Below are positions 1,666-58,982 of a stretch of 64,000 nt of DNA, in pieces. Numbering within the stretch: position 1 is the first letter of the stretch; each line of letters begins with the position of its first letter. Made by a program: the position numbers and the translations under genes. The notes beneath the pieces are model-generated. The model was not told the DNA's origin, ran no database searches, and worked only from the letters and a program-made list of their open reading frames with translations. This DNA comes from a virus. The stretch lies in the IMG/VR virus record IMGVR_UViG_3300045988_117710, one strand, 5' to 3'.

Positions 1666-2724
1666 TTGAGAGTTAAAGTTAAAGATTTTAATTGTATTCG
1701 AGAAGCTGAGTTTCAGTTCTTACCTGGATTAACTGTATTACAAGGTGAATCCAATGGTGGGAAGAGTTCAGTGTTCAGAGCGATTGAGAATACAATATTT
1801 AATCAGTCTGGGACAGCAAATGTTCAGCATGGTAAGCAGTTTTACTTGGTAGGGATTGAGAATAATGGTCATAAGGTTGTATTCAAGAAGGGTAAAGCTG
1901 GTGGAGTGTATAAGGTTGATGATGTAGAGTATTCTAAAGTTGGAGTCGGACAGGTGGAACAAGTAGCAGACGCTCTTGGGATCCGAGAAACTGTGCTTGC
2001 GGGAGAGAAGATTCGATTGAACTTCTGGAGTCAGATGGGATATCCGTTCTTGCTTGATAGAAGTCCGGGGCAGTTATACAAGTTTATTGTAGACAGCAGT
2101 GAATCGGAGTCGCTTTCAAGCGTTCTGAAGGACATCGCTAAGGACATCAAGGACACCAATGCGAGTATCGTGGCGAACGATAGTAAGTTAGATCTTCTTC
2201 ATTCACAACTTACTACGACCGAGGAGAGACTTCGTGATGCGGAGAAGACTGAGGAAACTTGTAAAGCGATTATAGCGATGGATTCTGAATACAATTTCAT
2301 TAATTCATTGGATTCAGAGATTCAAGCGTTCAATCGTGTATCTACTAATCTTGGAGAGCTTCAAGCTTCTCTGATAACTATTCCGAACCTAGATACTTCA
2401 ACTTTAGATGTGGCTTATCAAGATTATCAAGTTGTTCCTGTGGTAGAGGAGTATCAGAAGAAGTCCCAAGAACTTCATTCTGCTGAGGAGTCTCTATCAC
2501 AAATCAATTCCAAGATTGAAATCATTCAGGATATAGATGATGTTGATATTAGTGTTCTTAATACCATTCAGTCTGCTATTAATGAATATAATTCAGTTAT
2601 GTATGAATTATCCAATGAACACTCTAGATTGGGTGAGTTGGATCTTATGATTGAGCAGTGCAGGGAAGAGTTGAAAGAATTCAAAGTTTGTCCTCTATGT
2701 GGAGGAGAGATTCATGAGGGTTAG
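1666..2724 (+). CDS. sbcC: SbcC/Rad50-like ATPase, N-terminal fragment (Walker A, coiled coil, zinc hook)
   Basis: N-terminal VLQGESNGGKSS P-loop typical of SMC/Rad50/SbcC, then a long coiled coil, ending CPLCGGEIHEG (CxxC zinc hook) followed at once by a stop. TTG start with an AAGAGGTGA RBS. Confidence 0.7.
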   Translation: MRVKVKDFNCIREAEFQFLPGLTVLQGESNGGKSSVFRAIENTIFNQSGTANVQHGKQFYLVGIENNGHKVVFKKGKAGGVYKVDDVEYSKVGVGQVEQVADALGIRETVLAGEKIRLNFWSQMGYPFLLDRSPGQLYKFIVDSSESESLSSVLKDIAKDIKDTNASIVANDSKLDLLHSQLTTTEERLRDAEKTEETCKAIIAMDSEYNFINSLDSEIQAFNRVSTNLGELQASLITIPNLDTSTLDVAYQDYQVVPVVEEYQKKSQELHSAEESLSQINSKIEIIQDIDDVDISVLNTIQSAINEYNSVMYELSNEHSRLGELDLMIEQCREELKEFKVCPLCGGEIHEG

Positions 2725-3031
2725 TACACATGGGAAGAAGAGAATGAGAGAACGAGTTCAATCTTCCCTAACTAATCGAAATGTTAATTCTCTGTTCAAG
2801 ACAGCTTTACATAAGGGTTATACTCCGAAAGCATTTATTGATGGTGACTTCAAGAAGTATTTGATGGCACATTCGAAGAAGAATTCAGTTAAGGTTTTCC
2901 AAGACCATATGTACTTATATAATGGTTCAAGAAAGATTTTGTACACAGTGTGGAAGGTTCCTAACCAATTTCTACCTGTGGAACAGTTTCTGAAGAGAAA
3001 CCAACCGAATCCTAATCAATTAAGTAAATAG
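2714..3031 (+). CDS. Small basic protein inserted within the split sbcC, DUF4258-like (RelE/ParE-like fold family) by recollection
   Basis: MRVSTHGKKRMRERV N-terminus resembles the HAxxRMxERGI start of DUF4258 proteins. Its RBS GGAGGAG lies inside the zinc-hook codons of the upstream fragment. No HNH or GIY-YIG motifs seen. Confidence 0.4.
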   Translation: MRVSTHGKKRMRERVQSSLTNRNVNSLFKTALHKGYTPKAFIDGDFKKYLMAHSKKNSVKVFQDHMYLYNGSRKILYTVWKVPNQFLPVEQFLKRNQPNPNQLSK

Positions 3032-3061
3032 TTTCGTAATTTCAAATGAGAGGTGATTTTA

Positions 3062-3310
3062 ATGAGTAATGATGAATTAGTTACTAGGTATAATAATATT
3101 AAGAGAAAGCAACAAGATTTCGAGAATCAGAAGATTCAAGTGGAGACTTCTATTAATATTAAGAAGACTGAGCTTGAAGCTGTGAAGACAAGATTACAAG
3201 AGTTAGGAGTTACTGATTTTGACAATCTAGATGCTTTTATTCAAGCGAAGAGAGAACAATTTGATAAGACTTTACAAGAGTTGGAGGCGAGGTTGAATGG
3301 TTCAGTATAG
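3062..3310 (+). CDS. sbcC: SbcC/Rad50-like middle coiled-coil fragment
   Basis: Heptad-rich K/E/Q sequence continuing the coiled coil; strong RBS GAGAGGTGA 6 nt upstream of ATG 3062. Confidence 0.55.
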   Translation: MSNDELVTRYNNIKRKQQDFENQKIQVETSINIKKTELEAVKTRLQELGVTDFDNLDAFIQAKREQFDKTLQELEARLNGSV

Positions 3311-6040: not shown

Positions 6041-7201
6041 ATGAAGAAATTAAGAGTTTTAGAGTTTTTCAGTGGTATTGGTGCTACTCATGTTGCATTT
6101 GATATGTTGAGAGAACAATTAGATGTTGATTTTGAGTTCGTTGATGCTATTGAGATTGATCCTGTTCCTATGGCAATGTATAATTCCATGTTTGGTACTA
6201 ATCATCCTACTCAAGATGTTACTAGGTGGGATAAGTCGATTGAAGAGCTTGGTGGGGAGATAGATATTATTCAACATTCTAGTCCCTGTCAAGATTTTTC
6301 TAACCAAGGTCATGGAGCTGGTGCTGAGAAGGATTCTGGTACACGAAGTTCATTGCTTTGGGAGATGGTTCGTATTTGTGATAAGATTAGACCAAAGATT
6401 ATGATTTGGGAGAATGTTGAAGGACTTTTGAATCATAAGCATGCAGCTGTATTTGAGGGTTATAAAGAAGAGTTAAGACGTATGGGTTATTTATCATATG
6501 TAATTAAGATGAATGCTTCTGATTATGGTATTCCTCAAGCACGTCCTAGGGTGTTCACTGTTTCAGTTCGAAGAGATTTTAGTGATAAGTATTTCTATCA
6601 ACCTGATCCATTTTACAATAATATTTGTTTAAGAGATTTATTAGAGGATGAACCTAAGGATTTTAAATTCCATTGGTATGATTTAGGTGGGAAGCAGTTT
6701 CTAAAGGATAAAGAGGATAATTATTTTAAGAATGTTAAGTTAGAGAGTCAACTTTATTATAAGGGTATTAATCCAGAGTATAATATTTATCCTGGTATTT
6801 ATGTTCTAGCAGAGGTTGACCAAGCATTCAAGTCTACTTCTAGAATATTTAGTCCAGATGGTATTTCACCAACTCTTGATACTAAGTCTGAAGTTAAGGT
6901 TGGTCTTAAGGAAGATTTATATGAGGATAGAGCAATTCGATATATAACTCCTTTAGAAGCATGGAGAATTGATGGATTCCCTGATGAGTATTATTTTAAG
7001 GCAACACAAGCTTGTCATGCTGCTACGAAGTTGAAGAAAGCGGCAGGTAATTCTATTTCCACTGCTCAGATGTATCATTTATTGAAGGAGATTATAATTC
7101 ATTTGTTTGGTGAGGATTATTATAATAGAGATAGATTAGAAGATTCTATTTATTATCTTCCTTACTTTGAAGGTAAAGGTATTTACAAGGACAACGAATA
7201 G
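6041..7201 (+). CDS. DNA (cytosine-5)-methyltransferase
   Basis: Motif I FSGIGA, motif IV SSPCQDFS (PCQ), motif VI WENVEGLL (ENV), motif VIII QARPRVF and motif X GNSIS, in canonical order. Confidence 0.9.
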   Translation: MKKLRVLEFFSGIGATHVAFDMLREQLDVDFEFVDAIEIDPVPMAMYNSMFGTNHPTQDVTRWDKSIEELGGEIDIIQHSSPCQDFSNQGHGAGAEKDSGTRSSLLWEMVRICDKIRPKIMIWENVEGLLNHKHAAVFEGYKEELRRMGYLSYVIKMNASDYGIPQARPRVFTVSVRRDFSDKYFYQPDPFYNNICLRDLLEDEPKDFKFHWYDLGGKQFLKDKEDNYFKNVKLESQLYYKGINPEYNIYPGIYVLAEVDQAFKSTSRIFSPDGISPTLDTKSEVKVGLKEDLYEDRAIRYITPLEAWRIDGFPDEYYFKATQACHAATKLKKAAGNSISTAQMYHLLKEIIIHLFGEDYYNRDRLEDSIYYLPYFEGKGIYKDNE

Positions 7202-7446: not shown

Positions 7447-8601
7447 ATGAGTAAAGGTTTTTCTAGATTGAAAGAGTCTATTCGAATGTGCAATTTATCT
7501 TATAAGGACCTTGCTATCACTACAGGAGTTCCAAAGCAATTTATACAAGAGTATATGCGAGGAGCAATAGATTCTGGAACAAGTCCAAGTTATCGAAATG
7601 GTGATTTAGTTGAGGAGTATAAATCAATTCTTTATAACTATTTTGAGAATTTTGTTAAGTCACAAGATAAACTGAAGACTAAACAGACTAAGATGGTAAA
7701 TGAGCATGATTTGGTGGTCAAGAAGGGTGAGTATCATTCCAAATCTTCTTTGGGTGGTGTTTCTTATGCACCACAAGTTTCACCCCATACAAGGGCTGTA
7801 AATGTGCTTGTTTATGATATAGAAGTTTCGCCTTTATTGGGGTGGGCTTATAATCGTTTTAAGACAAATCTTTTAAAGGTAGAGCAAGAACAGATTCTAC
7901 TTAGTTTTTCAACTTTAGAGTTTACTGTTGATGAAGATCATTCTATTTTAGATGGAGATACATCTAAGGTAAGATGTTGGACTCTTGCAGATTTTGATTT
8001 CAATGAAGAGCTTCTAGTTAAGAAGTTGTTTGAATGTTTTGATTCTGCAGATATTATAATGGGTTTCAATAACAAAGGTTTTGATACAAAGTTTGCCAAT
8101 AGATATTTTATTAAATATAATACTGGTCGACCTTCACCATTTAAACAGATTGATGTATTTAAAGAATGGAAGAAGATTGCAAGACTTTCTTCTAATGGTT
8201 TAGATTCTGTTAATATGTATTTGGATGAGAAGGGTAAGACAGATATTAAGGTTGGCGAACTATGGCATGATTGTATTGTCAATAGAGATAAGAAAGCATA
8301 CAAGCTTTTAGAGTCTTATAACAATCAAGATGTAGTTCTTACATATGACTTATTCAAGAGTATTTTAGCATATATCGATTCTTCTGATGTTAATTTAGCA
8401 ACATTGATGCAACATCCATTGGCTTGTCCTAGATGTGGTTATGTTGGTTCATTTGAGGATCATGGTTATGCTTATTCTCAAGTTGGTCGTTATAATCAAT
8501 ATCAGTGTTGTAATTGTGGTTCTATTGTTCAAGGTAGATATCAAGATTCAACTGTTTTACAGAATGATATTTATGTAGATGTACGACCAATACTTAAATA
8601 A
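7447..8601 (+). CDS. DEDDy-type 3'-5' exonuclease with an N-terminal HTH-like region and a C-terminal zinc ribbon
   Basis: Exo I YDIEVS, Exo II NNKGFDTKF and Exo III YNNQDVVLTYD; C-terminal CPRCG...CCNCG. Confidence 0.55.
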   Translation: MSKGFSRLKESIRMCNLSYKDLAITTGVPKQFIQEYMRGAIDSGTSPSYRNGDLVEEYKSILYNYFENFVKSQDKLKTKQTKMVNEHDLVVKKGEYHSKSSLGGVSYAPQVSPHTRAVNVLVYDIEVSPLLGWAYNRFKTNLLKVEQEQILLSFSTLEFTVDEDHSILDGDTSKVRCWTLADFDFNEELLVKKLFECFDSADIIMGFNNKGFDTKFANRYFIKYNTGRPSPFKQIDVFKEWKKIARLSSNGLDSVNMYLDEKGKTDIKVGELWHDCIVNRDKKAYKLLESYNNQDVVLTYDLFKSILAYIDSSDVNLATLMQHPLACPRCGYVGSFEDHGYAYSQVGRYNQYQCCNCGSIVQGRYQDSTVLQNDIYVDVRPILK

Positions 8602-8638
8602 GTTATATATTAAGATATAATAGTTTATGGAGGTTTGA

Positions 8639-8827
8639 ATGGAAGAAAAGTTAAAAACTATCCCAACTAATGAGGATCTTCAAGTTTTAAATCCTGATGG
8701 TATCGAAATTGATATGACATTAGTTGAACAATTCATTAATGAGGAAGGAGATGAATTTGTTCAAAGTACTTTAAATGAAGATTCTTTAGAAGTTCTATGT
8801 GAAGAAGGAGAAATTGAAAATGCCTAA
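8639..8827 (+). CDS. Small acidic hypothetical protein
   Basis: GGAGGT RBS; D/E-rich 62 aa. Confidence 0.4.
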   Translation: MEEKLKTIPTNEDLQVLNPDGIEIDMTLVEQFINEEGDEFVQSTLNEDSLEVLCEEGEIENA

Positions 8828-9809
8828 TTTCAAAGCAAGAACAAGTTGTCCTTCCAATAATAAGCATTTCATTCGTCAAGCAACTGGTGGATGGAATTCA
8901 TGTATCCAAGGAAATCCAACTAAGTCAGATGCTAATGTTCTAGCTAACTGTGTTGGGTATGCAAATGGTAGATTTAATGAAATCTATGCAGGAATTAAGA
9001 ATACAACAGGTAATAGATACAATACTCTTAATTGTAATGCTGAGAATTTCATTGAAAGAGCAATCTCTGCTGGATTGCAAATAGTTTCATATCCTGTACC
9101 TGGTGGTATCATGGTATGGCAAAAGGGTAATACTCTATCTGGTAGTGATGGTGCTGGTCACGTTGCTATCTGTGAATATTATGTTGAAGTAGATTCTAAA
9201 GGATATCCTACTAAGGTATATACTTCTGAATCTGGATATGGTTCTAGTTATTTCTGGAATTCATATCGTTCTAATTCTAATGGAAGATGGGGATTAGGTT
9301 CTGGTTATAAATGGAGAGGTTGTATTGTTAACCCTGCAGTTGGTTTACCAGAATTGAAACCAGATACACCAACTCCTACACCAAGTGGTAATTTTAAATT
9401 CAATATTGGTGATAAAGTAGTTATTAATGGTCCATTATATGTTAGTTCTGTAGCTGGAAGTCCTTCTGGTTCAGTATCTAATAAAGTTACTACTATAACT
9501 AGAAGAGTAAATGCTGCTCATCCATATAATACTACTGGAGATTTAGGTTGGATGGATGAATCTTCTATTAAGAAGTATGAAGAACCAAAACCAACTCCTG
9601 TTACTTATAATGTAGGTGATACTGTAACTGTTACTGGTGTTGGTAAGTCTACATCTTATGGAGAAGGTGCAAGTACTAAGAAGTTCACTAATTGTAAAGC
9701 AAAGATTATTTATATTAGAGAAGGTCGTGCTTATCCTTATGCATTAAATTGTAATAACAATATGAATGGTGTAACTGGATGGTTTAAAGCTTCTGATATA
9801 AGAAAGTAG
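8820..9809 (+). CDS. Peptidoglycan hydrolase: CHAP/NlpC-P60-type cysteine peptidase plus two SH3b-like wall-binding repeats (endolysin candidate)
   Basis: NCVGYANGRF (catalytic Cys context) and GHVAICEY (His); two about 65-aa C-terminal repeats starting GDKVVINGP and GDTVTVTGV. GAAGGAGA RBS before ATG 8820. Confidence 0.7.
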   Translation: MPNFKARTSCPSNNKHFIRQATGGWNSCIQGNPTKSDANVLANCVGYANGRFNEIYAGIKNTTGNRYNTLNCNAENFIERAISAGLQIVSYPVPGGIMVWQKGNTLSGSDGAGHVAICEYYVEVDSKGYPTKVYTSESGYGSSYFWNSYRSNSNGRWGLGSGYKWRGCIVNPAVGLPELKPDTPTPTPSGNFKFNIGDKVVINGPLYVSSVAGSPSGSVSNKVTTITRRVNAAHPYNTTGDLGWMDESSIKKYEEPKPTPVTYNVGDTVTVTGVGKSTSYGEGASTKKFTNCKAKIIYIREGRAYPYALNCNNNMNGVTGWFKASDIRK

Positions 9810-9830
9810 TCAATTGTTTCGTATATTAAA

Positions 9831-9859
9831 ATAGTGATAAGTAATTATCACTATTTTTA
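9831..9859 (+). terminator. Intrinsic terminator (atagtgataa-gtaa-ttatcactat plus TTTTT)
   Basis: Perfect 10-bp stem; here it follows the TTTCGTATATT motif. Confidence 0.65.
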
Positions 9860-9872
9860 ACAAGGAGATTCT

Positions 9873-10010
9873 ATGGAAGAAACTGTTATCGATTCAGTTA
9901 TCAGTCTTTCAGAGGAAGAGTTTGCAGTTTGTTTGGGGAACGCAGATTCTTATACTGAAGAGGTAACTGAGACAGAAGTTATAGAAGGAACTGAAGAAAA
10001 CAATGATTAA
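9873..10010 (+). CDS. Small acidic hypothetical protein (45 aa)
   Basis: AAGGAGA RBS 7 nt upstream; read by eye. Confidence 0.35.
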   Translation: MEETVIDSVISLSEEEFAVCLGNADSYTEEVTETEVIEGTEENND

Positions 10011-37250: not shown

Positions 37251-38723
37251 ATGAAATTATTAAGTAATGACAGACCCTTTGATGTTTGGTCTAAAGCAAC
37301 TAGTATTCTCTATAGAGCTGTGGCGCATACTTTAGGTCCTAATGGTGCTAATACAGCTGTTGTATATGGAGATAGATTAGAATCTAATGCTAAGTTTAAT
37401 ATTATTAATGATGGTAAATCTATTATTGATAATTTAACTAGTGAAGAAGCTGTTGTGGCTTGTGCTTTACAAACATTGAAAGAGTCTGTTCTTTCAACTA
37501 ACAATAATGCAGGTGATGGTACTACTAGTACTATTGTTATGTTGCATGGTTTAGTTTCTGATTTGAATAATTATTTTGATGTTGATAAGGATTCTATTAA
37601 GTTATGTTCATTGGTTAGAAGAATCAAGAAAGAGTTACTTGATATTCTTCCAAGTATTACTGAAGATGTGTCTATTGATGATGTTTTCAATATTGCAACT
37701 ACCAGTTTAGGTTCTGATGAGTATTCTTCTTTGTTTGATGAAGCTTTCAGATTTGTTGGGGAGAATGGTAAGGTTCTTCTTGAGAGAACTACTGGTGATG
37801 AGTGTGTTGTTGAGAAGTTAGATGGTGTTTCTTTTGATCGTGTTGGTCTTGTTGCAGAGTTACTTCTTGATGATATTGGAACTATTAATAAGACAGTTGA
37901 TGCTAGGTCAATTATTCTAGATGGAGATATTTCTTCATTCAGTCAGATATCAAAGATTCTTTTAGCAGGTAAGACATCTGATGTTCCTATTGTAATGTAC
38001 TTTACGAAGATGACTCAAGAGGTTTTCCAATTGATGCTTCAGAATATTGTTAAGTCTGATATGAAGATAATTCCTGTTTCTCTTGAAGGTTATGGTCAAG
38101 AGAAAGTAAGATATATTAAGTTACTTGAATCTGTAATTGGTCATGATGCTGTTAAGATTGGTGACTTGGCTGGGGTTCAAGATTTATCTGATGTGAATCA
38201 TTATATTTTTAATTCTGATGCGATGATGGTTCGTCCATTGGATATGGAGAAATTTGAGGAAGTAAAAGACCAATTAAGGTTGAATATTTCTTCAAAGACT
38301 GCTATTATTAAAGTAGGTGCTGGTAATGCTGTACTCCAAGAGGAATTATTCAAGAGATTTGAAGATGCTGTGTATTCAGTGTCAAATTCTCTTAAATTTG
38401 GTCGTTGTTTAGGGGGAGGGGTTAGTTATATTACTTTGGCAGATAAGTTTGCTGAAGGGGCTGATTCTTCGGTTTCTAGTTGGATTAAGAATGCTATGCG
38501 ATGTGTATACAAGTTGTTACTTGAAAATTGTGATTTGACTTTTGAGGATAATGGTACTTATTTATTACCTAAGTTTGATGCTGAAACTGATTCTTGGTCT
38601 TTGAGTGATGAATTGGTTGTATATGATTCTTATAAGGTAATTGAGCAAGTAGTTTCCAATAGTTTTGATATGTTATACTCAATTCTATCGGTAAAAGCAT
38701 TTATTCTTGATCCAAAACGTTAA
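37251..38723 (+). CDS. GroEL-like chaperonin (Hsp60 family), phage-encoded and C-terminally shortened
   Basis: TLGPNGANTAVV ... NNNAGDGTTSTIVML aligns with GroEL TLGPKGRNVVL ... ANDAAGDGTTTATVLA. GRCLGGGVSYI corresponds to the GroEL VPGGGVAL equatorial motif. 490 aa, with no GGM tail. Confidence 0.7.
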   Translation: MKLLSNDRPFDVWSKATSILYRAVAHTLGPNGANTAVVYGDRLESNAKFNIINDGKSIIDNLTSEEAVVACALQTLKESVLSTNNNAGDGTTSTIVMLHGLVSDLNNYFDVDKDSIKLCSLVRRIKKELLDILPSITEDVSIDDVFNIATTSLGSDEYSSLFDEAFRFVGENGKVLLERTTGDECVVEKLDGVSFDRVGLVAELLLDDIGTINKTVDARSIILDGDISSFSQISKILLAGKTSDVPIVMYFTKMTQEVFQLMLQNIVKSDMKIIPVSLEGYGQEKVRYIKLLESVIGHDAVKIGDLAGVQDLSDVNHYIFNSDAMMVRPLDMEKFEEVKDQLRLNISSKTAIIKVGAGNAVLQEELFKRFEDAVYSVSNSLKFGRCLGGGVSYITLADKFAEGADSSVSSWIKNAMRCVYKLLLENCDLTFEDNGTYLLPKFDAETDSWSLSDELVVYDSYKVIEQVVSNSFDMLYSILSVKAFILDPKR

Positions 38724-46677: not shown

Positions 46678-46704
46678 ACTAATATGAAAGGAGACATGAC
46701 CCAT

Positions 46705-47031
46705 ATGAATTTTATCAAGAAGTTGTTAGGGATGGAGTATTTTGTTCCATTAGTAGGTGTTAAGGATGTAGCTGATGATCAGTATATGATCTCATCTGCT
46801 GGTAGAATCAAAAGACTTTATTCTAATAAGAGCTCGAAGGAATCAGTTAGTTTTCTTAAAGGTTCTTTAAATGCAGGTGGGAAGAGAGTTGTTACTTTAG
46901 GTAAGAGTACTTATCTAGTAGGTTCTCTTATGTTATATGCATTTGGTAAAGCTGACAGTCCTAGAGTTAAGTACAATGTTAGAGACAACGATAACTCTAA
47001 CTTAACACTATCTAACCTAGAGGTTATGTAG
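46705..47031 (+). CDS. Hypothetical protein
   Basis: AAAGGAGA RBS before ATG 46705. Confidence 0.4.
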   Translation: MNFIKKLLGMEYFVPLVGVKDVADDQYMISSAGRIKRLYSNKSSKESVSFLKGSLNAGGKRVVTLGKSTYLVGSLMLYAFGKADSPRVKYNVRDNDNSNLTLSNLEVM

Positions 47032-47421: not shown

Positions 47422-50400
47422 ATGAACAAGTTATTTGAATCTGTTGATAATTTATTTGATTCTGGTAAGAGTCTTATTAATGAAGATTATCGTGATGATG
47501 TTATTAATGATTTAGGTATTGAACCTGGTTCTGATGAAGAAGCACAAGTTGATGAAATCCTTAATACAGTTCCAACTGTTTATGATGTTTTCACTTTATC
47601 TCAAGTTGATGTTAATGAGTATAAGTCAGATCTTTATACTACTGTAGAAGATGAAGACCAAGCTTATGATATAGTTGCTGAACTTGGAGCTCAAGGTATT
47701 AATGCTTTTGTAGAAAGTAGAGATGCTAATGAAGATGTTATAGTTCCTAACAATTTCTTATCTGGTCTTTATGCTAGGGATTTGAATGAATCTACTGAAG
47801 GGTTAAGTAAAGAAGATAAGATTTGTCGTTTAGAAGATAAGATTAAGGAATGTAAAGATAGAATTGAAGAGATTGGTAATACTGAATTCTTCGATGATGG
47901 TTCTTATGAAGCAGGTTTAGAGTTAGAAGATAGAGCAATGGAAAGAGCTTCTCTTGAGTATGCTATTTCTGAATATCAAAAGGAAATAGATGAACTTAAA
48001 GGTGAAACTATTAATGAAGGTAGTAAGTTTGATTTATATTCTATCAGAGGAGAAATCAGAGATGATGAAACTGGTAGATTAATGCTTCATACTAAGAATA
48101 AGAATAATGGGTTAGTTGGTTGTGCAAATTTCTTTGGTGATGGTTCAGATATGGTTACTGTTTACGAAGGTAATGGTGATGGTTCTGATGACAAGAGTAT
48201 GGGATTCGATGAGTTCCTAGCAAACTATGATTATGTTCTTGCTGATGAAGATGAACAACCATTTGGTGTTACTGAAGCTTCTGAAGAGAAAGTATTTGTT
48301 AAGAAAGTTAAAGGTCCTAATGGTCAATTCTTTGATGTTTATAAGAAAGATGGTAAGTTTGTGGATGAATATAATAATGAACTTACTGCAGAAGAATTAA
48401 AAGATTATAAGTTAGTTGAAGATGAATCTAATGGTTCTACTGCTATTTTATATCAAGTTACTCCTGGTAAGACTAGAGAATATGGTTTTGAATCTTTAAA
48501 GATGTTAGATAAGTTTGGTATTGAGCTTAGTTTAGATAATTATACTGAAGTTGCTAATATTGATTATAGTAAGTATACAGATGCTACTGATACTAATGCA
48601 ATTCTAGAAGCAATATTCAGAGAAGGTAATACTAATCAAGATATGAGAGTTGAATTCCCTACTATGAGATCTGTTTCTATGTCTGATATTGTTTTATTAG
48701 ATGGTAGATATTACTATTGTGATGACTTTGGTTGGACAGATGTTACTGATCGTTTAACTGGTGTTAATGAGTCTGAAGGTGGAGATTTAAAATCTCAAGT
48801 TGTTGAGTATTTAACTTCTAAATATGGTGAAGGTTTTGAATTAGAAGACAATGTTAATGGTTTTACTAATCAAGATGAAATTATTGATTCTATTGTTAAT
48901 TCTTATGAAGGAAATGAAAATTTAACTGTTGCTGAGTTTATAGATTCTTTAATTGAACCTCATGGTTTAATTGTTGTTAAGTCTAAAGGTTTATCTGAAG
49001 GTACTTCTGCTAAACGTATAGCAAGATATAATGAATTTGATAATGGTAGAGTTTTACATTCTTGGAAAGATATGACAGATGAAGAAGCTGAAGAGCTTGC
49101 TAAACAAAAGTCAATTGAAGATCCAAATAATGTTTATTATGTATGTAATGATAATGTTATGAATCCTACTTCTGATAAGGTTTGGTATAATGGTAAGTCT
49201 TATGATTTCAGTGATGTTAAGTTTAGTGAAACTGGTACTTACTGTGAATCTGAAGAAACTGATCCTAGATTAGATACTTTTGCTGAGTTATATTATAAGT
49301 ATCAAGATGGTGAATCTCATGAATGGACAAGAGAAGAAGTTATTGATTGGATTAATGATGAAATTAAGTTAGGTGATACTTCATTTACTTTAGATGATGA
49401 AACTATTGATTTATTATTAGGTTTCCAACATGATTTACATCAAGCTGATATAGAAGATTTAGATGAAGCTTCTAAACCTTTAGTTAAAGATAAGTTCTAT
49501 ATTGATGGTGTTGGTCCAGAGTTTGATGGTTACCACGATCCTAGTGTTCTTTGGAATGGTTGGGAATGTCCATTCTTTACTAAAGAGGTAGCAGATGAGA
49601 TAACTAAAACTTTTACTGATGAGTCTGTTACTTTTGAATATGATGAAGCTGGTAAGAAATATATAATTACTTGGAATGGTGAAGATACTGAAGAAGTTCC
49701 TATGACACGTCGTGAAACTGTTGATGGTGAGTTAGATTTATTCCCATTAGGTTATTATGGTTGGTGTTGGAATAAAGCTTCTGATGATTTAGAAGAGTCT
49801 AATAAATTAGATGAAACAGCTTGGAAGGGTACTCTTAAGTCTGGTTCTGCTTTAAGAGCCCTAATTAATAATCCAGATGATACTATTGAATATTATCAAG
49901 CTGTATTAGATAAGATTAAAGATGTTTGTAATGAAGCAATTCCAATGTGTGATGATGAATATTATGCTAATGGATTCCAATCTTTAATAGATGATATTGA
50001 ATGTATTTATTATGATGAAGAATTAGATGAAGGTAATGTTGATTATATTCTAGATGGTCTTTGGGATTGGGCTGATGGTGCTAAGTTATTCGTTGCCTTA
50101 GGTGAATCTGAAGTAGTTATGGAAGAAGATTCTAATTATACTAATAAATATCGTTGTGTTACTGCAGGATATGATACTGTAGAAACATTTGATTCAAAGG
50201 ATGATGCAATTGCATTTGCTAAAGAGAATGACAGGGTGTATTCAGTAATGTCTGATATTTATCAAGGTGATATGTTAATTAGTGTTGGATTAAATGATAT
50301 TTGGTCTAAGTATGATGAAGATTTAACTGAAGCTTCTAGTGTAGATGGTTTAGTTACTAAGTTTGTTGAGTTACCATATGGTGATTTCAAAGCAAATAAT

Positions 50401-50652
50401 GCCATTGGTGTTCTTAATGATGGTACAGTGTTTTGGGTAGATAGTGAGAATGAAGCTTATTCAGTTCCTTGTTCTTACGATGAGTTAAAGAGAGCAATGT
50501 ATGGTAAAGAACAAGATGATTGGATGGAATTTTCTCAAAGTTTCACTAGAATAGAAGACCCACTAGAAACTAAGATTATGGTTGCTATTGGACGTTACTC
50601 TGAAGATGTTCTAGATTATCATGAAACTTTTAAAGATGGGTTACCATTCTAA
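47422..50652 (+). CDS. MNKLFES-leader family protein 2 (1076 aa giant, acidic)
   Basis: Starts MNKLFESVDNLFDSGKSLINEDYRDDVINDLG; no recognisable catalytic motifs. Confidence 0.6.
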   Translation: MNKLFESVDNLFDSGKSLINEDYRDDVINDLGIEPGSDEEAQVDEILNTVPTVYDVFTLSQVDVNEYKSDLYTTVEDEDQAYDIVAELGAQGINAFVESRDANEDVIVPNNFLSGLYARDLNESTEGLSKEDKICRLEDKIKECKDRIEEIGNTEFFDDGSYEAGLELEDRAMERASLEYAISEYQKEIDELKGETINEGSKFDLYSIRGEIRDDETGRLMLHTKNKNNGLVGCANFFGDGSDMVTVYEGNGDGSDDKSMGFDEFLANYDYVLADEDEQPFGVTEASEEKVFVKKVKGPNGQFFDVYKKDGKFVDEYNNELTAEELKDYKLVEDESNGSTAILYQVTPGKTREYGFESLKMLDKFGIELSLDNYTEVANIDYSKYTDATDTNAILEAIFREGNTNQDMRVEFPTMRSVSMSDIVLLDGRYYYCDDFGWTDVTDRLTGVNESEGGDLKSQVVEYLTSKYGEGFELEDNVNGFTNQDEIIDSIVNSYEGNENLTVAEFIDSLIEPHGLIVVKSKGLSEGTSAKRIARYNEFDNGRVLHSWKDMTDEEAEELAKQKSIEDPNNVYYVCNDNVMNPTSDKVWYNGKSYDFSDVKFSETGTYCESEETDPRLDTFAELYYKYQDGESHEWTREEVIDWINDEIKLGDTSFTLDDETIDLLLGFQHDLHQADIEDLDEASKPLVKDKFYIDGVGPEFDGYHDPSVLWNGWECPFFTKEVADEITKTFTDESVTFEYDEAGKKYIITWNGEDTEEVPMTRRETVDGELDLFPLGYYGWCWNKASDDLEESNKLDETAWKGTLKSGSALRALINNPDDTIEYYQAVLDKIKDVCNEAIPMCDDEYYANGFQSLIDDIECIYYDEELDEGNVDYILDGLWDWADGAKLFVALGESEVVMEEDSNYTNKYRCVTAGYDTVETFDSKDDAIAFAKENDRVYSVMSDIYQGDMLISVGLNDIWSKYDEDLTEASSVDGLVTKFVELPYGDFKANNAIGVLNDGTVFWVDSENEAYSVPCSYDELKRAMYGKEQDDWMEFSQSFTRIEDPLETKIMVAIGRYSEDVLDYHETFKDGLPF

Positions 50653-51842: not shown

Positions 51843-51870
51843 AGACTAGTTAATCTAGTCTTTTTCTTTT
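51843..51870 (+). terminator. Intrinsic terminator (agactag-ttaat-ctagtct plus T-run)
   Basis: Perfect 7-bp stem then TTTTTCTTTT. Confidence 0.65.
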
Positions 51871-51910
51871 GTCTTTCTATTATATATTTATTATAGTAGA
51901 GAGGTGGCCT

Positions 51911-53719
51911 ATGGATAATACTAATTTCCTAGATAAGATTATTGATTATAACAAATCTCAATATATTTCGAAAGCTACTAAGATTAGAGAGATAGTAGCA
52001 CCAGAAGTTTGGATTAACGATCCTTACTATTGTGGTGAGGATGGTAAGTTTTTATATCCATTCTGGAAGAAACACTTTGTTGAGATTTTTTCTCGTCCAA
52101 ATGAGAAGAGAATTAATGAGATTATAATTACTGGTTCTTTAGGAACTGGTAAGACTACATTCATGACTTTCTGCTTCTTAAGACTTTTATATGAGCTTAG
52201 TTGTTATGATTGTCCACAGATTCTTTATAATTTGATGTCAAGTACTTCTATTGTTCTTATGTATTTGTCTATCAATAAGGATATAGCAGAGAATACTGGT
52301 TATGGGGATTTGAGACAGAGAATTGATACTATTCCATACTTCATTGAGAATTATCCTAGAAATCAAAGATTGTCTAATGATATTGAGTTCCCACAATCTA
52401 ATATTCGTGTAGGTTCTGGTTCTAGAGCTTCTCATGCAATTGGTACTAACTTAATTGCTGCGGCTCTTGACGAATCTAACTTCAAAGGTACGGGTGAAGC
52501 TGCTACTGATGTCAACTCAATGTCTAAAGCACAACAAGTTTATAATGCTTTACGTAGACGTGGAGAAAACCGTTTTACCGTTGGTGGTATTGATTATTCA
52601 TTGTCTATCTTACTTTCTTCTGCAACTACTTCAAACTCTTTTACAGAGGCACGTATTGCTCATACTGCTTCTAATGAGCATGTTTATCATATTAATGCTA
52701 AGGTTTATGAAGTTAAACCTGCAGGAACTTATAGTAGTGAGAAGTTTATAGTATTTATGGGTAATGACCAATTGGATCCTACTCTTGTTGAGACTGTTCC
52801 AGCTCTTAATAATATTATGGATTCGGTTGGATTACCAAGATTTGCAGATACAGTCAATCTCGTAGATAGTATTAACTCATTGAGAGAAGATATTAGGGCA
52901 ATGTTTGAACTTGTTCCTATGAATTTTATTGAGTCTTTTAGAACAGATGTTGTTAAGTCTTTACAAGATATTTGTGGTGTTCCTGTTAACCCTATTGGTA
53001 GATTGTTTACAGCAAAGAGATATTATAATGAGTGTATTGACAATCAAGTTACACATCCATTTATTCAAGATGAGTTTATTCTTTCTACTGGTTCATCTGT
53101 TACTGGTATTGAGTATTTAAGGTCTGATTGGAAACCTTTAGAACCACATAAGACTAGATTTGTTCATATCGACCAATCTACAGCATCCGATAAGACTGGT
53201 ATTTGTATGGGATTTATAGACCATTTTGAGAATATTAATGGTGAGAATAGACCGGTTATTTATGTAGATTTTATGTTAGCTGTTAATCCACCATTGGCAC
53301 CAGAAAAGATTCATATTGCCAAGTGTCGTCAGTTAGTTTTAGATATAGCCAAGAAGTTTAATCTTAAGATTGGTAAATTCACTTACGATACCTTTGCATC
53401 TCAAGAGTCTGTTCAACAGCTTCAACAAGAAGGTATTAATGCTGATTTTCAATCAGTGGATAGAACAGTTGATGCTTATCTTGAGTTGTGTGATTTATTT
53501 TATGAGAAGAGAATTCATATCTATTCTTATCCGAAGTTTGAGAAGGAGTTCTTTAATTTACAATACTATCGTGATAGGAAGAAGATAGACCACTTACCAG
53601 AGTTTTCAAAGGACGTTTCTGATGCTGTTGCAGGAATGATTCATAATTGTACTCATAATGATGCTCAGTTGGATGCACTTCGTAAGATGGATGCTGAAAA
53701 CATTCTTAAGTGGTTATAA
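51911..53719 (+). CDS. terL: Terminase large subunit
   Basis: N-terminal ATPase P-loop (GSLGTGKTT), Walker B-like LIAAALDESNF, and a C-terminal RNase-H-like nuclease region (FVHIDQSTASDKTG); about 600 aa. Confidence 0.65.
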   Translation: MDNTNFLDKIIDYNKSQYISKATKIREIVAPEVWINDPYYCGEDGKFLYPFWKKHFVEIFSRPNEKRINEIIITGSLGTGKTTFMTFCFLRLLYELSCYDCPQILYNLMSSTSIVLMYLSINKDIAENTGYGDLRQRIDTIPYFIENYPRNQRLSNDIEFPQSNIRVGSGSRASHAIGTNLIAAALDESNFKGTGEAATDVNSMSKAQQVYNALRRRGENRFTVGGIDYSLSILLSSATTSNSFTEARIAHTASNEHVYHINAKVYEVKPAGTYSSEKFIVFMGNDQLDPTLVETVPALNNIMDSVGLPRFADTVNLVDSINSLREDIRAMFELVPMNFIESFRTDVVKSLQDICGVPVNPIGRLFTAKRYYNECIDNQVTHPFIQDEFILSTGSSVTGIEYLRSDWKPLEPHKTRFVHIDQSTASDKTGICMGFIDHFENINGENRPVIYVDFMLAVNPPLAPEKIHIAKCRQLVLDIAKKFNLKIGKFTYDTFASQESVQQLQQEGINADFQSVDRTVDAYLELCDLFYEKRIHIYSYPKFEKEFFNLQYYRDRKKIDHLPEFSKDVSDAVAGMIHNCTHNDAQLDALRKMDAENILKWL

Positions 53720-54061: not shown

Positions 54062-55825
54062 ATGTCTGGACCTTTAAACGATAAATTATTGGACGAGGCA
54101 GTCAACAAGACTCTTAATGAAAAGAGTTATGAGACTAACAAGTCTTTTATTGCTGGTATGTCTTTATCACAATTTAGTGACTTTATTCACTCTGACCAAA
54201 TGTCAGATTTAAATGATAAGGCACTTTATGATGAGATGTTACTAGATGCCACAGTTCGTAATGTAATTGATGCTTATGTTGCTGAGATTGTAATTCGTGA
54301 TACTAATACAAATCATATTTGTACTGTTTTATCTGAAGATGCTAAACTTGTCGAAGAGTTAAACTCTTTTCTATTTGATAATATCAATATAGATGCTTTA
54401 GCAAATAATATTGTATTAAGAATGTTAGCTTATGGATGTGCTCCATGTGAGTTAGCTTATATTGATTCAACTACAGATTCTCAATGGCAATTATTCTCTG
54501 AAAGTGAGAAGTTAAAAGATATGACTTCTGAAAACTTATTAGAGAGTTTATCCAAGAAGGATGTTAAAGAGTTTCTTGTTGAAGGTAAGAAACTACGAGT
54601 TGTTTCTAATAAGAAAGCTCTTAAGGAAGATGTTCTTGAGTTAAGAAAGAAACAGTTCCCTGTTAGATGGTATTTAAATCAATTACCTATTTGGTCTTTG
54701 AAGGTTTTAAATTCTAAGGGTAAAGATATCGCTTATTTAGATCCAACTGTAACTGATAGAGTTTATGATGGAAGAACTCTTGTTCCTTTTATGAACATTT
54801 CTTCTAATGATTCAACTAGTATTAGTTCAACAGATGGTTCTGATAGTTATACTATATCAGCATCTGAAAGTTTTCTTAAACCTGCTAGAAAAGCGTATAG
54901 AGTTTTAAGTTCTTTTGAGGATTTATTATTAATCCATGCACTTACTACTTCAATTAACTATCGTATTTTTAGTGTTGAAGTTGGTAATTTAGATGAGAAA
55001 CAAACTCCAGCTCTTTTAGGAGATATTAAGAAGAGAATTAATGAGAATGAATCATTCAATTTAGAGACTTCATTCTATAATGCTTCTATGACAGGTGTTC
55101 CTCTAGGAGCGTCAATCCTTATTCCAACAAGAAATGGGGTTGGAACTATTTCAGTTCAACAAATTGATAATAGTTTTGGTACTAGTGAATTAGGTGATTT
55201 TAATTATTTCAAGAATAAATTAGCAACTGCTTTACATAGTAATTCACTTTTAACTGGTTCTACTGATAATGCAGGTGGACTTGATTCTGGTGGTTCTATG
55301 TCTGTTCTTGATGATAGAGCATCACAATATATAGAGTTATATAGAAATATATTTGCTTCTGGTATTGAATCTTTATGTGATTATTATTTAAGATTAACTA
55401 GAACAGAGTCTGCTTATTCAAAGTTAACTACTTTTAGTATTAGACTTGCTAGAAATATAGATGCTGAACAAGTTAATTTCTTAAAGGGACAATCTGAAGC
55501 TGCAAGTTCTCTACAACAAGTTGTTAGAGCACTTAAAGATTTAGGTTTAGATATGAAGAATTTCTCTGATACTCAATTATTACTAGTTCGTAAATTCTTG
55601 GGTAATGAGATTGCAGATTCTTTAGCTCTTGAGATGGAGAGTGCTAGTTCATTGTCTAGTCGCAAACCTCCTATTGTAGGAGATGATTCTACTGGTGGTG
55701 AGTTAGGTTCTACTGGTGATGATTCATTTGATTCATTCGAAGTAAGTGATGAAGAAGTTGACAATGCAGTTTCTGGTTCTGATGAAGAACAATTAACTGT
55801 TGAAGAACCTGGTATTGAATTATAA
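54062..55825 (+). CDS. Putative portal protein
   Basis: Position immediately downstream of terL, size 587 aa, acidic C-terminal tail; no motif-level support. Confidence 0.3.
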   Translation: MSGPLNDKLLDEAVNKTLNEKSYETNKSFIAGMSLSQFSDFIHSDQMSDLNDKALYDEMLLDATVRNVIDAYVAEIVIRDTNTNHICTVLSEDAKLVEELNSFLFDNINIDALANNIVLRMLAYGCAPCELAYIDSTTDSQWQLFSESEKLKDMTSENLLESLSKKDVKEFLVEGKKLRVVSNKKALKEDVLELRKKQFPVRWYLNQLPIWSLKVLNSKGKDIAYLDPTVTDRVYDGRTLVPFMNISSNDSTSISSTDGSDSYTISASESFLKPARKAYRVLSSFEDLLLIHALTTSINYRIFSVEVGNLDEKQTPALLGDIKKRINENESFNLETSFYNASMTGVPLGASILIPTRNGVGTISVQQIDNSFGTSELGDFNYFKNKLATALHSNSLLTGSTDNAGGLDSGGSMSVLDDRASQYIELYRNIFASGIESLCDYYLRLTRTESAYSKLTTFSIRLARNIDAEQVNFLKGQSEAASSLQQVVRALKDLGLDMKNFSDTQLLLVRKFLGNEIADSLALEMESASSLSSRKPPIVGDDSTGGELGSTGDDSFDSFEVSDEEVDNAVSGSDEEQLTVEEPGIEL

Positions 55826-55905: not shown

Positions 55906-56376
55906 ATGAATACAGTTATTATGTGTGGAAATCTAACAGCAGATCCTGAATTACGTCAGGGAGCATCTGGAGTTAATTATACTCAGTTTACTGTTGCTGT
56001 TCAACGTTCTAATTTAGAGAAAGATGGAACAAGAAAAGCAGATTTTATTCCTACTACAGCATTTGGAAACAATGCAATCAATATTTGTAAGTATTTTAAG
56101 AAGGGTTCAAAGATACTTCTAAATGGTGAGTGGAGAACTGATTCTTATGACCAAAATGGTGTAAGAGTTTATACTCATAAGTTTATAGTTACTCGTTTCT
56201 TCTTTACTGGAGGTTCTAGTAATAATAACAGTACAACTGCAAATCAATCGTTAGGTGTTCCATATCAACAAGCTCAACAAAATGCACAAATTCGTCAAGA
56301 TTTTGAAGTACCAACTATAGCAGATGTACCTCAAGAAGATTTCGGGTTTAGTACAGAAGATGATTTTGGTTTCTAG
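55906..56376 (+). CDS. ssb: Single-stranded DNA-binding protein
   Basis: MNTVIMCGNLTADPELR...ADFIPTTAFG...YTHKFIV matches the bacterial SSB OB-fold, and the C-terminal acidic tail ends DDFGF. Confidence 0.85.
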   Translation: MNTVIMCGNLTADPELRQGASGVNYTQFTVAVQRSNLEKDGTRKADFIPTTAFGNNAINICKYFKKGSKILLNGEWRTDSYDQNGVRVYTHKFIVTRFFFTGGSSNNNSTTANQSLGVPYQQAQQNAQIRQDFEVPTIADVPQEDFGFSTEDDFGF

Positions 56377-56943: not shown

Positions 56944-57912
56944 GTGTTAAAGCTTTATTTTGTAGGAGATTTACATTTACATGATGTAAGTCCTAGTTCG
57001 AGAATAGATGATTATTCTCAAGCAATTTTAGATAAGCTTTCTCAAGTATTTACTAAGGCGAAGGAAAGTAATGTTGATGCAATTATATTTGAAGGAGATA
57101 TTTTCCATAAGCCATCTGGTATTTCAGTTAGATACTTGAATAAGGTTATTGATGTGTTTAAGGAAGCACATTGTCCATGTTATTCTGTTATAGGAAATCA
57201 TGATGTTCAGTATGGTCGAATAGATGATATTGGTGGCACTTCTTTAGGAGTTCTATTTAAAGCTGGTTTACTGAAACCATTCTTTGCTGGAGCTTTCTCA
57301 ATTCCTTTTATGGATGGTAAGGTTTTAGTTGAAGGATATAACTATGGTGAGGATATTTCTCAAGCAAGTCCAAGTAGACAAGCAAATTTAACTATTTGTG
57401 TTGCTCATAGTTATGGTGAAGATGTTTCATTTGGTGCTGCAGATACACCAGAGTACTTTAAGTTTAATTCTATAGCTCCTGAAGTTCCATATAATGTTTA
57501 TGTTTTAGGACATGACCATTCATATCATGATACTATGGATTTGTTTGGTGGTCTTTCTAAACTTTATCGTTTAGGAGCTTTGTCTAGAGCAACTTCTAGT
57601 GTTACTGATACTAGTAGAGATGTTCAAGTTCTAGAGTTAGATATTAATGAGGATGGTTCTTATATTCCAATTCCTGTTCACATTGATATTAATCCTGCAG
57701 AAGATTGTTTCTCTGCTTTAGCTCTTGATAAGGATATGATGTCAAAGAGAGATAGAGAGTTGATTAATAAGTCTTTAGAGGAAGTTTTAGCAAATCTAGA
57801 TTTTTCAGTTAAGAGTTCTATTTATGATATTCTTGATGCTATGGATTTAGATGATAATGTCAAAGCAACTGTAGAACGATATTTGAATAATGCGTTCATT
57901 GTAAGGAAGTAG
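56944..57912 (+). CDS. sbcD: SbcD/Mre11-family nuclease (calcineurin-like phosphoesterase)
   Basis: Motif I VGDLHLHD, motif II EGDIFHK, motif III IGNHD, motif V-like GHDH; GTG start with a GAGGTGA RBS. Confidence 0.75.
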   Translation: MLKLYFVGDLHLHDVSPSSRIDDYSQAILDKLSQVFTKAKESNVDAIIFEGDIFHKPSGISVRYLNKVIDVFKEAHCPCYSVIGNHDVQYGRIDDIGGTSLGVLFKAGLLKPFFAGAFSIPFMDGKVLVEGYNYGEDISQASPSRQANLTICVAHSYGEDVSFGAADTPEYFKFNSIAPEVPYNVYVLGHDHSYHDTMDLFGGLSKLYRLGALSRATSSVTDTSRDVQVLELDINEDGSYIPIPVHIDINPAEDCFSALALDKDMMSKRDRELINKSLEEVLANLDFSVKSSIYDILDAMDLDDNVKATVERYLNNAFIVRK

Positions 57913-57927
57913 TATACTTCCTTTTTT
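57904..57927 (+). terminator. Intrinsic terminator (aggaagt-agtat-acttcct plus TTTTTT) fused to the promoter motif
   Basis: Perfect 7-bp stem. Confidence 0.7.
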
Positions 57928-57935
57928 CGTATAAT
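57927..57935 (+). promoter_or_regulatory. TCGTATAAT promoter motif
   Basis: Recurring motif. Confidence 0.5.
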
Positions 57936-57958: not shown

Positions 57959-58192
57959 ATGCTTTGTATGAATGGTGTTAGTACAGGTAAGATTCCAATG
58001 ACTTATACTTGGGTTCCTTGTTTTGTTTGTAATCATTGTAGAAAGATAGTATCTGGTGGTGAGTATATTCAAGGAGTTTTCTATTGTCCTATGTGTGCAA
58101 GTATAATTCATAGGAATAATAGAGAGTCTAGGGAAGTTGTTCCTGTGGTAGTTCCTATTAGTATTCCAATGGATAGACAAATTACTTATTAG
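57959..58192 (+). CDS. Cys-rich zinc-finger hypothetical protein
   Basis: CFVCNHC...CPMC; AGGAGG RBS. Confidence 0.45.
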   Translation: MLCMNGVSTGKIPMTYTWVPCFVCNHCRKIVSGGEYIQGVFYCPMCASIIHRNNRESREVVPVVVPISIPMDRQITY

Positions 58193-58201
58193 GAGGTATT
58201 T

Positions 58202-58519
58202 ATGGAGAAGTTTGAGTTTTGTATTCCAGAAGGGATTTCGATTCCCACTGATTTGAAGGTTAAGAAAGGTAAGATTATAGTTAATTATCATAGAGATTCT
58301 GATGATTCTATGACTTGGCATTTTACTGTTTATAATGCAGGTTCTTTGTCTGAAGCTGATAATGTTGTTCATGAGATTATTCAATTAATGTGTGATCAGT
58401 CTTTTGATCATGGTGCTGAGTGGAGAATGACTTCTTGTGAGATGGGTGATTCTTGTTTTAATAACTTTCTTGACTATGCTGATTTTAAGGTATCATTTAG
58501 AATAAAGGATAGTTGGTAA
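58202..58519 (+). CDS. Hypothetical protein
   Basis: AGGAGG RBS. Confidence 0.45.
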   Translation: MEKFEFCIPEGISIPTDLKVKKGKIIVNYHRDSDDSMTWHFTVYNAGSLSEADNVVHEIIQLMCDQSFDHGAEWRMTSCEMGDSCFNNFLDYADFKVSFRIKDSW

Positions 58520-58520
58520 T

Positions 58521-58982
58521 ATGGAGAAGATTGCAAGTTTTACTGTAGATCATACAGTTTTGTTACCTGGAGTGTATATTAGTAGGGTTGATGAAGATAT
58601 TGTTACTTATGATATTAGAATTAAGCGACCTAATACTGATGATTTGATGTCTAATGAGGAGATGCATTCGGTTGAGCATTTATTGGCTACGGCATTGAGG
58701 AATTCTTATCTTAAGGATGATGTTATTTACTTTGGTCCTATGGGTTGCCAAACGGGTTATTATTGTCTTATGAGAGTGGATTCTGGGTTTAATTTTATGA
58801 AGTTTCTGAAGGATGTTATGATTTATGCTCTTTCTTTTGATTCTATGCCAGGTCAATCTGCTGTTGAGTGTGGTAATTATAAGAATTTAGATTTAGAATT
58901 AGGTAAGTCTTGTATTAAGAATTACTTGAATTTACTTGATTCTTTTGAGGATATTTGTGAATATCCAAAGAAACTTGATTAA
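58521..58982 (+). CDS. luxS: S-ribosylhomocysteine lyase LuxS (autoinducer-2 synthase)
   Basis: HSVEHLLA (HxxEH metal-binding motif) and GPMGCQTGYY (conserved PMGCQTGFY Cys motif) in the right order and spacing, with a LuxS-like N-terminus (SFTVDHT) and a typical length of 153 aa. Confidence 0.75.
   Translation: MEKIASFTVDHTVLLPGVYISRVDEDIVTYDIRIKRPNTDDLMSNEEMHSVEHLLATALRNSYLKDDVIYFGPMGCQTGYYCLMRVDSGFNFMKFLKDVMIYALSFDSMPGQSAVECGNYKNLDLELGKSCIKNYLNLLDSFEDICEYPKKLD

Follow-up and report, generated by a model that had tools for sequence, protein, structure and literature searches.

A predicted S-ribosylhomocysteine lyase (LuxS) kept in a fixed genomic slot by T4-like phages, probably of gut Clostridia

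In the activated-methyl cycle, SAM-dependent methyltransferases yield SAH, which Pfs/MtnN splits in an irreversible hydrolysis, releasing adenine and S-ribosylhomocysteine (SRH); from SRH, LuxS produces homocysteine and DPD (4,5-dihydroxy-2,3-pentanedione), which cyclises to AI-2. Viral luxS genes have been catalogued among organosulfur auxiliary genes by Kieft et al. (2021), with dN/dS below 1 for luxS (bioRxiv 10.1101/2021.01.05.425418). According to the same study, some viral genomes carry luxS and mtnN together, and the organosulfur auxiliary metabolic genes of human-associated viruses are dominated by the SAM-cycle genes metK, dcm, mtnN and luxS (bioRxiv 10.1101/2021.01.05.425418). One phage LuxS appears in a 2026 digester study (PMC13644194). 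The literature searched contained no experimental study of a viral LuxS, and none is mentioned in a review from 2021 on quorum sensing between phages and bacteria (PMC7790227). Phage genes with a bearing on bacterial communication have been described in other forms, namely the agr genes of the Clostridium difficile phage phiCDHM1 (PMC3901668) and the VqmA receptor of vibriophage VP882 (PMC7790227).

The luxS gene analysed here is located in a 64,000-nucleotide stretch of viral DNA (IMG/VR record IMGVR_UViG_3300045988_117710), referred to below as the window. Neither the family nor its occurrence in viruses is new, and this exact protein has already been annotated in public records. GenBank entry DAW53538.1, 'MAG TPA: S-Ribosylhomocysteinase (LuxS) [Caudoviricetes sp.]', is 100% identical (153/153 residues) and comes from the same phage species, but the record is an automatic annotation without residue, synteny, selection or origin analysis; an identical protein in JGI is annotated 'S-ribosylhomocysteine lyase'. 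The first-pass annotation of the window had described LuxS as not a standard phage gene. This stands insofar as there is no LuxS family in PHROGs and none was seen in the credible cultured phage records examined, but it falls short in that the viral luxS class and the identical protein had been annotated before. What is added here is a clean, vertically inherited case, and the constant coupling of luxS to a second gene, orf105, directly upstream.

In comparison with the viral luxS genes of Kieft et al., the window copy belongs to the same family, is found on viral contigs from gut-type habitats in the company of dcm and other SAM-cycle genes, and is under purifying selection; unlike the catalogue-level genes, it occurs without mtnN in the region seen and is inherited vertically within one T4-like clade. 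The product shares with bacterial LuxS (Bacillus subtilis 1j98, 1ie0 and 2fqo; Helicobacter pylori 1j6x) a length of ~153 aa, the HxxEH motif with a distal cysteine, the GPMGCQTG motif, the residues S6, H11 and R33, and the fold (TM up to 0.81). It differs from them in being phage-encoded, with ~30–33% identity to the solved structures and at most ~60% to any cellular LuxS found. The gene adjoins neither pfs nor a metabolic operon, whereas the nearest Clostridia luxS genes lie in a purine-biosynthesis operon. As with agr in phiCDHM1 and VqmA in VP882, a host-derived component of cell-cell signalling is carried by a phage; those are, however, peptide-signal synthesis or sensing genes or a receptor, in temperate phages, while here a T4-like phage carries a metabolic enzyme for which signalling would be a by-product, and a receptor was not detected.

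The luxS product and its upstream partner

The LuxS assignment made at first pass was based on two hallmarks of the 153-aa open reading frame (ORF), HSVEHLLA and PMGCQTGYY. Both are present (residues 49–56 and 73–81, respectively), and the family call is borne out by Pfam, by matches to LuxS entries of the PDB, by the predicted fold, and by the intact catalytic and metal residues. The Pfam LuxS profile (PF02664) matches with an E value of 3.5e-42 and 144.2 bits (gathering cutoff 27), and the alignment covers residues 3–137 of the ORF and positions 1–146 of the 154 in the profile. Nine sequences of solved LuxS structures are matched with E values between 9e-16 and 1e-7. Among the NCBIfam equivalog models, whose score is the level used by the NCBI PGAP pipeline for naming proteins, the best (NF002604) gives 155.2 bits against a cutoff of 158, and the other nine LuxS models score well below theirs.

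The residues were numbered by alignment to B. subtilis LuxS. The metal triad consists of H49, H53 and C117 (H54, H58 and C126 in B. subtilis); the third ligand, C117 in the motif AVECGNY, had gone unmentioned at first pass. The catalytic acid/base pair is formed by E52 and by C76 of GPMGCQTG (E57 and C84), and the substrate site by S6, H11, D31 and R33 (S6, H11, D37 and R39). These nine residues are invariant in 119 sequences, 42 from the phage clade and 77 others, and the invariance also spans the active-site motifs GPMGCQTG and ECGNY. By sequence alignment, the residues contributed across the LuxS dimer interface are conserved in the phage protein as well. The AlphaFold2 model has a pLDDT of 86.7 and a pTM of 0.83. 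In a Foldseek search of the PDB the top 18 matches are all LuxS (E values of 1e-11 to 1.5e-8, TM 0.66–0.81), and the next match has an E value of 8e-3. The identity of the ORF as LuxS is firmly supported on the criteria of sequence and modelled fold, and the protein is predicted to be a catalytically competent S-ribosylhomocysteine lyase.

The positions of luxS, its close neighbours and the other genes on which the analysis rests are collected in Table 1. The stop codon of orf105 ends 1 nt before the ATG of luxS, the gap between orf77 and orf105 is 9 nt, and no terminator-like site was detected by pattern scan between luxS and the following gene, orf149. The hairpin at the end of the SbcD-like gene is probably the upstream boundary of a putative orf77-orf105-luxS transcription unit. 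A search for a riboswitch or other RNA near luxS gave no Rfam match, and no tRNA is present in the window.

Table 1. Position of luxS and associated features in the window
Feature	Position	Strand	Basis or remark
C5 cytosine DNA methyltransferase (Dcm-type)	6041-7201	+	PF00145, 187 bits; phrog_116
T4-type portal	54062-55825	+	PF07230 Portal_T4 in siblings; tblastn to gp20-type myovirus portals
SSB, single-stranded DNA-binding protein	55906-56376	+	PF00436 in siblings
SbcD/Mre11-like metallophosphatase nuclease	56944-57912	+	PF00149 in siblings; phrog_100 SbcD-like
Terminator-like hairpin and T-run, end of SbcD-like gene	57903-57923	+	consensus scan
TATAAT box	57930-57935	+	pattern match; followed by AGGAGG ribosome-binding site and orf77
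orf77, small CxxC...CPMC zinc-ribbon-like protein	57959-58192	+	ORF list; no family match
orf105, clade-restricted, 105 aa	58202-58519	+	no Pfam or PHROG match
Shine-Dalgarno-like AAGGA, 11 nt before luxS ATG, inside end of orf105	58505-58509	+	sequence
luxS, S-ribosylhomocysteine lyase, 153 aa	58521-58982	+	ATG to TAA

The putative first gene of the unit, orf77, is variable among the relatives: it is absent in L006, and its motif is common to a 91-aa ORF of L094 (68% over 38 aa). A homolog of orf105 directly precedes luxS in all relatives examined; in L002, L006, L094 and L095 the homologs are 40–52% identical to the window copy and are separated from luxS by gaps of 1–8 nt. Two homologs of orf105 were found in 5.8 billion proteins. 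The gene evolves faster than luxS (dN/dS 0.12–0.52). Its AlphaFold2 model (pLDDT 69.6) has a beta-beta-alpha-beta-beta arrangement, for which there is no significant fold match in the PDB. A weak similarity to tail-terminator/neck proteins (E value of at least 0.02, TM at most 0.45) was not relied on.

Methyl-cycle and signalling roles

The first-pass annotation proposed that a phage LuxS could detoxify the SAH made by the phage C5-methyltransferase. The methyltransferase is indeed encoded in the window (Table 1), but the proposal is wrong as written, as the removal of SAH is the Pfs/MtnN step, which is absent from the phage region seen. The accompanying remark that no pfs gene adjoins luxS is correct, the PF01048 and tblastn searches being empty at the locus. 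Over the whole window, no ORF of at least 100 aa has a PF01048 domain, and tblastn with three Pfs probes (E. coli Pfs and two gut-bacterial Pfs-like proteins) gave no match at E values up to 1. Against eight phage-clade loci, the same probes gave one chance-level match (E value 0.99, 34 residues), inside the L006 portal gene. In the siblings no pfs/mtnN is present within ~5 kb beyond each window end, the search thus covering the window and ~10 kb more of the ~182-kb genome. A complete phage-borne Pfs-LuxS (mtnN-luxS) module was not encountered in the window, its flanks or the phage-clade loci. Scans of JGI metagenome contigs for more of the ~182-kb genome were empty with 40-mers and gave only a 1.7-kb fragment of a relative when based on the ligase; an exact-match look-up of the window LuxS for the same purpose was also empty. 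Since no phage pfs was found in the DNA searched, the SRH substrate would have to come from host Pfs; the phage LuxS would be confined to SRH made by the host enzyme, and cannot itself remove SAH.

We hold it moderately probable that the phage protein is an active SRH lyase acting downstream of host Pfs, which recycles homocysteine during phage DNA methylation and releases AI-2 as a by-product. Judging from the chemistry of the family, the enzyme would be a homodimer with Fe2+/Zn2+ bound by H49, H53 and C117, and with E52 and C76 as acid/base. The SAH from the phage Dcm and from other SAM users would be turned into SRH by host Pfs, and the thioether of SRH would be cut by the phage LuxS, giving homocysteine and DPD, the AI-2 precursor. 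The homocysteine returned in this way would enter methionine and SAM resynthesis and keep the activated-methyl cycle going during infection, and the release of AI-2 would be unavoidable, whether exploited by the phage or not. The methyl-cycle role is supported by the presence in the phage of a SAM consumer, Dcm, which is conserved in the siblings L098 and L099; it is possible that its by-product SAH feeds the Pfs/LuxS branch, linking the gene functionally to luxS. Because the Pfs reaction is irreversible, LuxS is not needed for the relief of SAH inhibition, and the putative benefit to the methyl cycle within a short infection would therefore rest only on the recovery of homocysteine.

An alternative, which we find unlikely, is that the production of DPD/AI-2 is the selected function and the recovery of homocysteine incidental. 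The extra AI-2 would alter the host population or its neighbours through, for example, biofilm state, receptor or defence expression, or the induction of competing prophages. AI-2 is, to our knowledge, synthesised by LuxS alone, and the phage copy is intact in residues and predicted fold; its AI-2 output would nevertheless be limited by the supply of SRH from host Pfs. The retention of luxS without pfs in the region seen would boost only the DPD-forming step, and orf105, as the conserved coupled partner, could be an accessory factor, but an AI-2 receptor, transporter or regulator was looked for in the window and none was detected. Phage T1 and prophages of Enterococcus faecalis are reportedly induced by AI-2 supplied from outside (PMC7790227), but any AI-2 response by the Clostridia host or by the phage studied here is hypothetical, and the SAM-cycle genes that co-occur in gut viruses point to metabolism (bioRxiv 10.1101/2021.01.05.425418). 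A stronger form of this proposal, that a lytic-type T4-like phage keeps LuxS and orf105 as a dedicated module which rewrites inter-species quorum signalling in the gut via AI-2/DPD-derived signals, we consider quite improbable.

It is very unlikely that the fold is conserved and the role has shifted, whether to another thioether or ribosyl substrate or to a non-catalytic function with orf105, such as the sequestering of a metabolite or a host protein. The long separation from cellular LuxS (at most 60% identity), the tight coupling to the clade-specific orf105 and the score just under the best NCBIfam equivalog cutoff would be compatible with such a shift, but no variation was seen at any of the catalytic, metal-binding or substrate-contact residues examined, as expected for unchanged chemistry. 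If the enzyme is active as an SRH lyase, an abundant gut phage lineage would control the last step of the activated-methyl cycle together with the only AI-2 route in the infected hosts, and infection would be tied both to the SAM economy, through phage DNA methylation, and to community signalling. The locus is chiefly of value as a clean, well-validated case in which a viral LuxS could first be studied by biochemistry and genetics.

Phage origin and inheritance of luxS

The source phage is an uncultured T4-like myovirus with a genome of ~182 kb, and its hosts are probably gut Clostridia. A ruminant gut habitat is suggested by the XIEF21-1 sample labels and by the occurrence of RGIG genomes in the closest bacterial matches. 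The lineage is classed as uncultured, on portal comparison, because no cultured relative is close (identity of at most ~30% over part of the portal). All ORFs of at least 100 aa in the window that have a family match or a conserved sibling homolog are on the + strand. Besides the genes of Table 1, they encode an ATP-dependent ligase, DnaB, a clamp loader, a family A polymerase (PolA), a Toprim primase and an AAA_23 protein, as well as T4 baseplate proteins and gp25, a prohead protease, a gpV-type spike, a tail lysozyme, a tail protein with an M23 peptidase domain and a Cpn60 chaperonin. The T4-type portal, a phage hallmark gene, is located 2.7 kb upstream of luxS. The SSB and SbcD-like genes that the first-pass annotation had placed upstream of luxS are both confirmed, and luxS is followed by conserved phage ORFs, a GH25 lysozyme-family gene and a metallophosphatase.

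The gene is phage-encoded, as proposed at first pass: it lies mid-genome between phage flanks, its GC content matches that of the window (32.3 and 32.1%, respectively), and it occupies the same slot in relatives. Identical or 95–99% identical LuxS proteins are found in dozens of assemblies, contigs of 180–189 kb among them, and in a 99.8-kb contig and a 182,294-bp scaffold luxS is far from the contig ends. That the ORF is host DNA on a misassembled or misbinned contig, or a prophage flank, is scarcely credible: other database 'phage' LuxS entries (MT835487, MT835476 and the IMG/VR contig L001) look bacterial, but here conserved phage genes flank luxS on both sides away from contig ends, the arrangement is repeated in many independent assemblies of 100–189 kb and in diverged relatives, the GC is phage-like, and the product differs by more than 40% from any LuxS found in the species-representative bacterial genomes, so that synteny, GC, recurrence across assemblies and divergence from cellular LuxS rule out host contamination and misassembly. 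With viral genes on both sides, a position off the contig edge, retention in relatives and purifying selection, luxS can be classed as a viral auxiliary metabolic gene.

The order of genes around the slot in the relatives is SSB, small ORFs, SbcD-like nuclease, orf105 homolog, luxS and orf149 homolog (in L095, the ORF in the nuclease slot has no Pfam family on record). The LuxS proteins of the same-slot relatives L006, L095 and L094 are 77, 72 and 66% identical to the window copy, and identity reaches 97% among the relatives overall. The dN/dS ratios were calculated by the Nei-Gojobori method for window genes against L002 and L006. For luxS the ratio is 0.155 against L002, from 15 substitutions only (9 synonymous and 6 non-synonymous), and 0.10 against L006, an approximate value as dS is saturated (1.5). 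Against the same two relatives, in this order, the portal gene has ratios of 0.09 and 0.18 and the SbcD-like nuclease gene ratios of 0.02 and 0.13. By these values luxS is evidently under purifying selection, like the portal gene.

A neighbour-joining tree was built from 84 LuxS sequences of genome and viral databases (80 of them matches in Clostridia genomes), 12 metagenomic sequences and B. subtilis as the outgroup. The nine phage LuxS proteins are monophyletic in 198 of 200 bootstraps, and no specific bacterial sister of the phage clade emerged in this tree. When species-representative bacterial genomes were scanned, the nearest cellular LuxS, the best 80 loci, were 47–60% identical and belonged almost all to gut Clostridia (Oscillibacter, Dysosmobacter, Ruminococcus and other Oscillospiraceae). 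Two of the closest loci were verified as chromosomal, within a purine-biosynthesis operon of spore-forming Clostridia. Because the synteny is shared, the dN/dS is low, the phage proteins are monophyletic and the nearest cellular LuxS are those of gut Clostridia, the comparisons show a single, old capture from a Clostridia-type host by an ancestor of the phage clade, followed by vertical inheritance in a fixed slot under constraint.

The operon in the two chromosomal loci (L007 10001-15668 and L009 9216-10465) comprises purL, luxS, purE, purM, purN and purH. L007 has an insertion of three SLH-domain genes after luxS. In L009, luxS adjoins a PunA-like nucleoside phosphorylase; this PF01048 protein was considered as a pfs beside luxS and rejected, as it is PunA-like, has no match to E. 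coli Pfs and lies in the purine operon.

Among the 50,697 records of INPHARED, 13 contain LuxS matches, and none of these is an annotated phage genome (12 are without annotation, and the thirteenth is the record of a Salmonella genome). MT835476 and MT835487 carry the label 'UNVERIFIED: Bacteriophage sp.'. In MT835487 (L012, MT835487.1 14205-27468) the luxS-pfs pair is surrounded by PTS, GH1, histidine-kinase and decarboxylase genes, and MT835476 (L011, MT835476.1 12727-28325) contains the origin region dnaA-dnaN-parB-gidB-yidC-jag-mnmE with a PF01048 gene before luxS. In the one IMG/VR match (L001), luxS-pfs is located at the contig end beside a transposase. All three look like bacterial DNA, and some of the catalogued 'viral' luxS+mtnN pairs may therefore be host flanks. 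Apart from LuxS, the window has no protein in common with L001, L011, L012 or L013, and these were rejected as phage relatives; L011 and L012 are bacterial chromosome.

Several other features of the window and its siblings were observed. The ORF before the portal (616 aa, window 51869-53719) has 1005 aa in the siblings (L002 2190-5207 and L003 2190-5207), where it contains an intein with a LAGLIDADG endonuclease (PF14890, PF14528) in addition to PF27249; the shorter window ORF is therefore the intein-free allele. An insertion/deletion polymorphism separates window 2724-3297 (573 nt) from L098 and L099 (~7850-10001), which are ~1.5 kb longer, the insert carrying a 198-aa NUMOD4 homing-endonuclease-like ORF and a 265-aa ORF; a weak NUMOD4 match is also present in the window at 46684-47031. 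A phage Cpn60/GroEL-type chaperonin (PF00118, 88 bits) is encoded at 37251-38723. The 1277-aa ORF at 32252-36085 matches the T4 prohead protease (Peptidase_S77) in residues 39–174, and the remaining ~1100 residues are without a family match. In the siblings L098 (1545-2030) and L099 (1502-1987), a 161-aa ORF that matches PF25185 'Tad3', possibly involved in anti-defence, is located outside the window, ~3.7 kb before its start. The 1076-aa protein at 47422-50652 has a YodL-like domain (PF14191) at residues 343–441.
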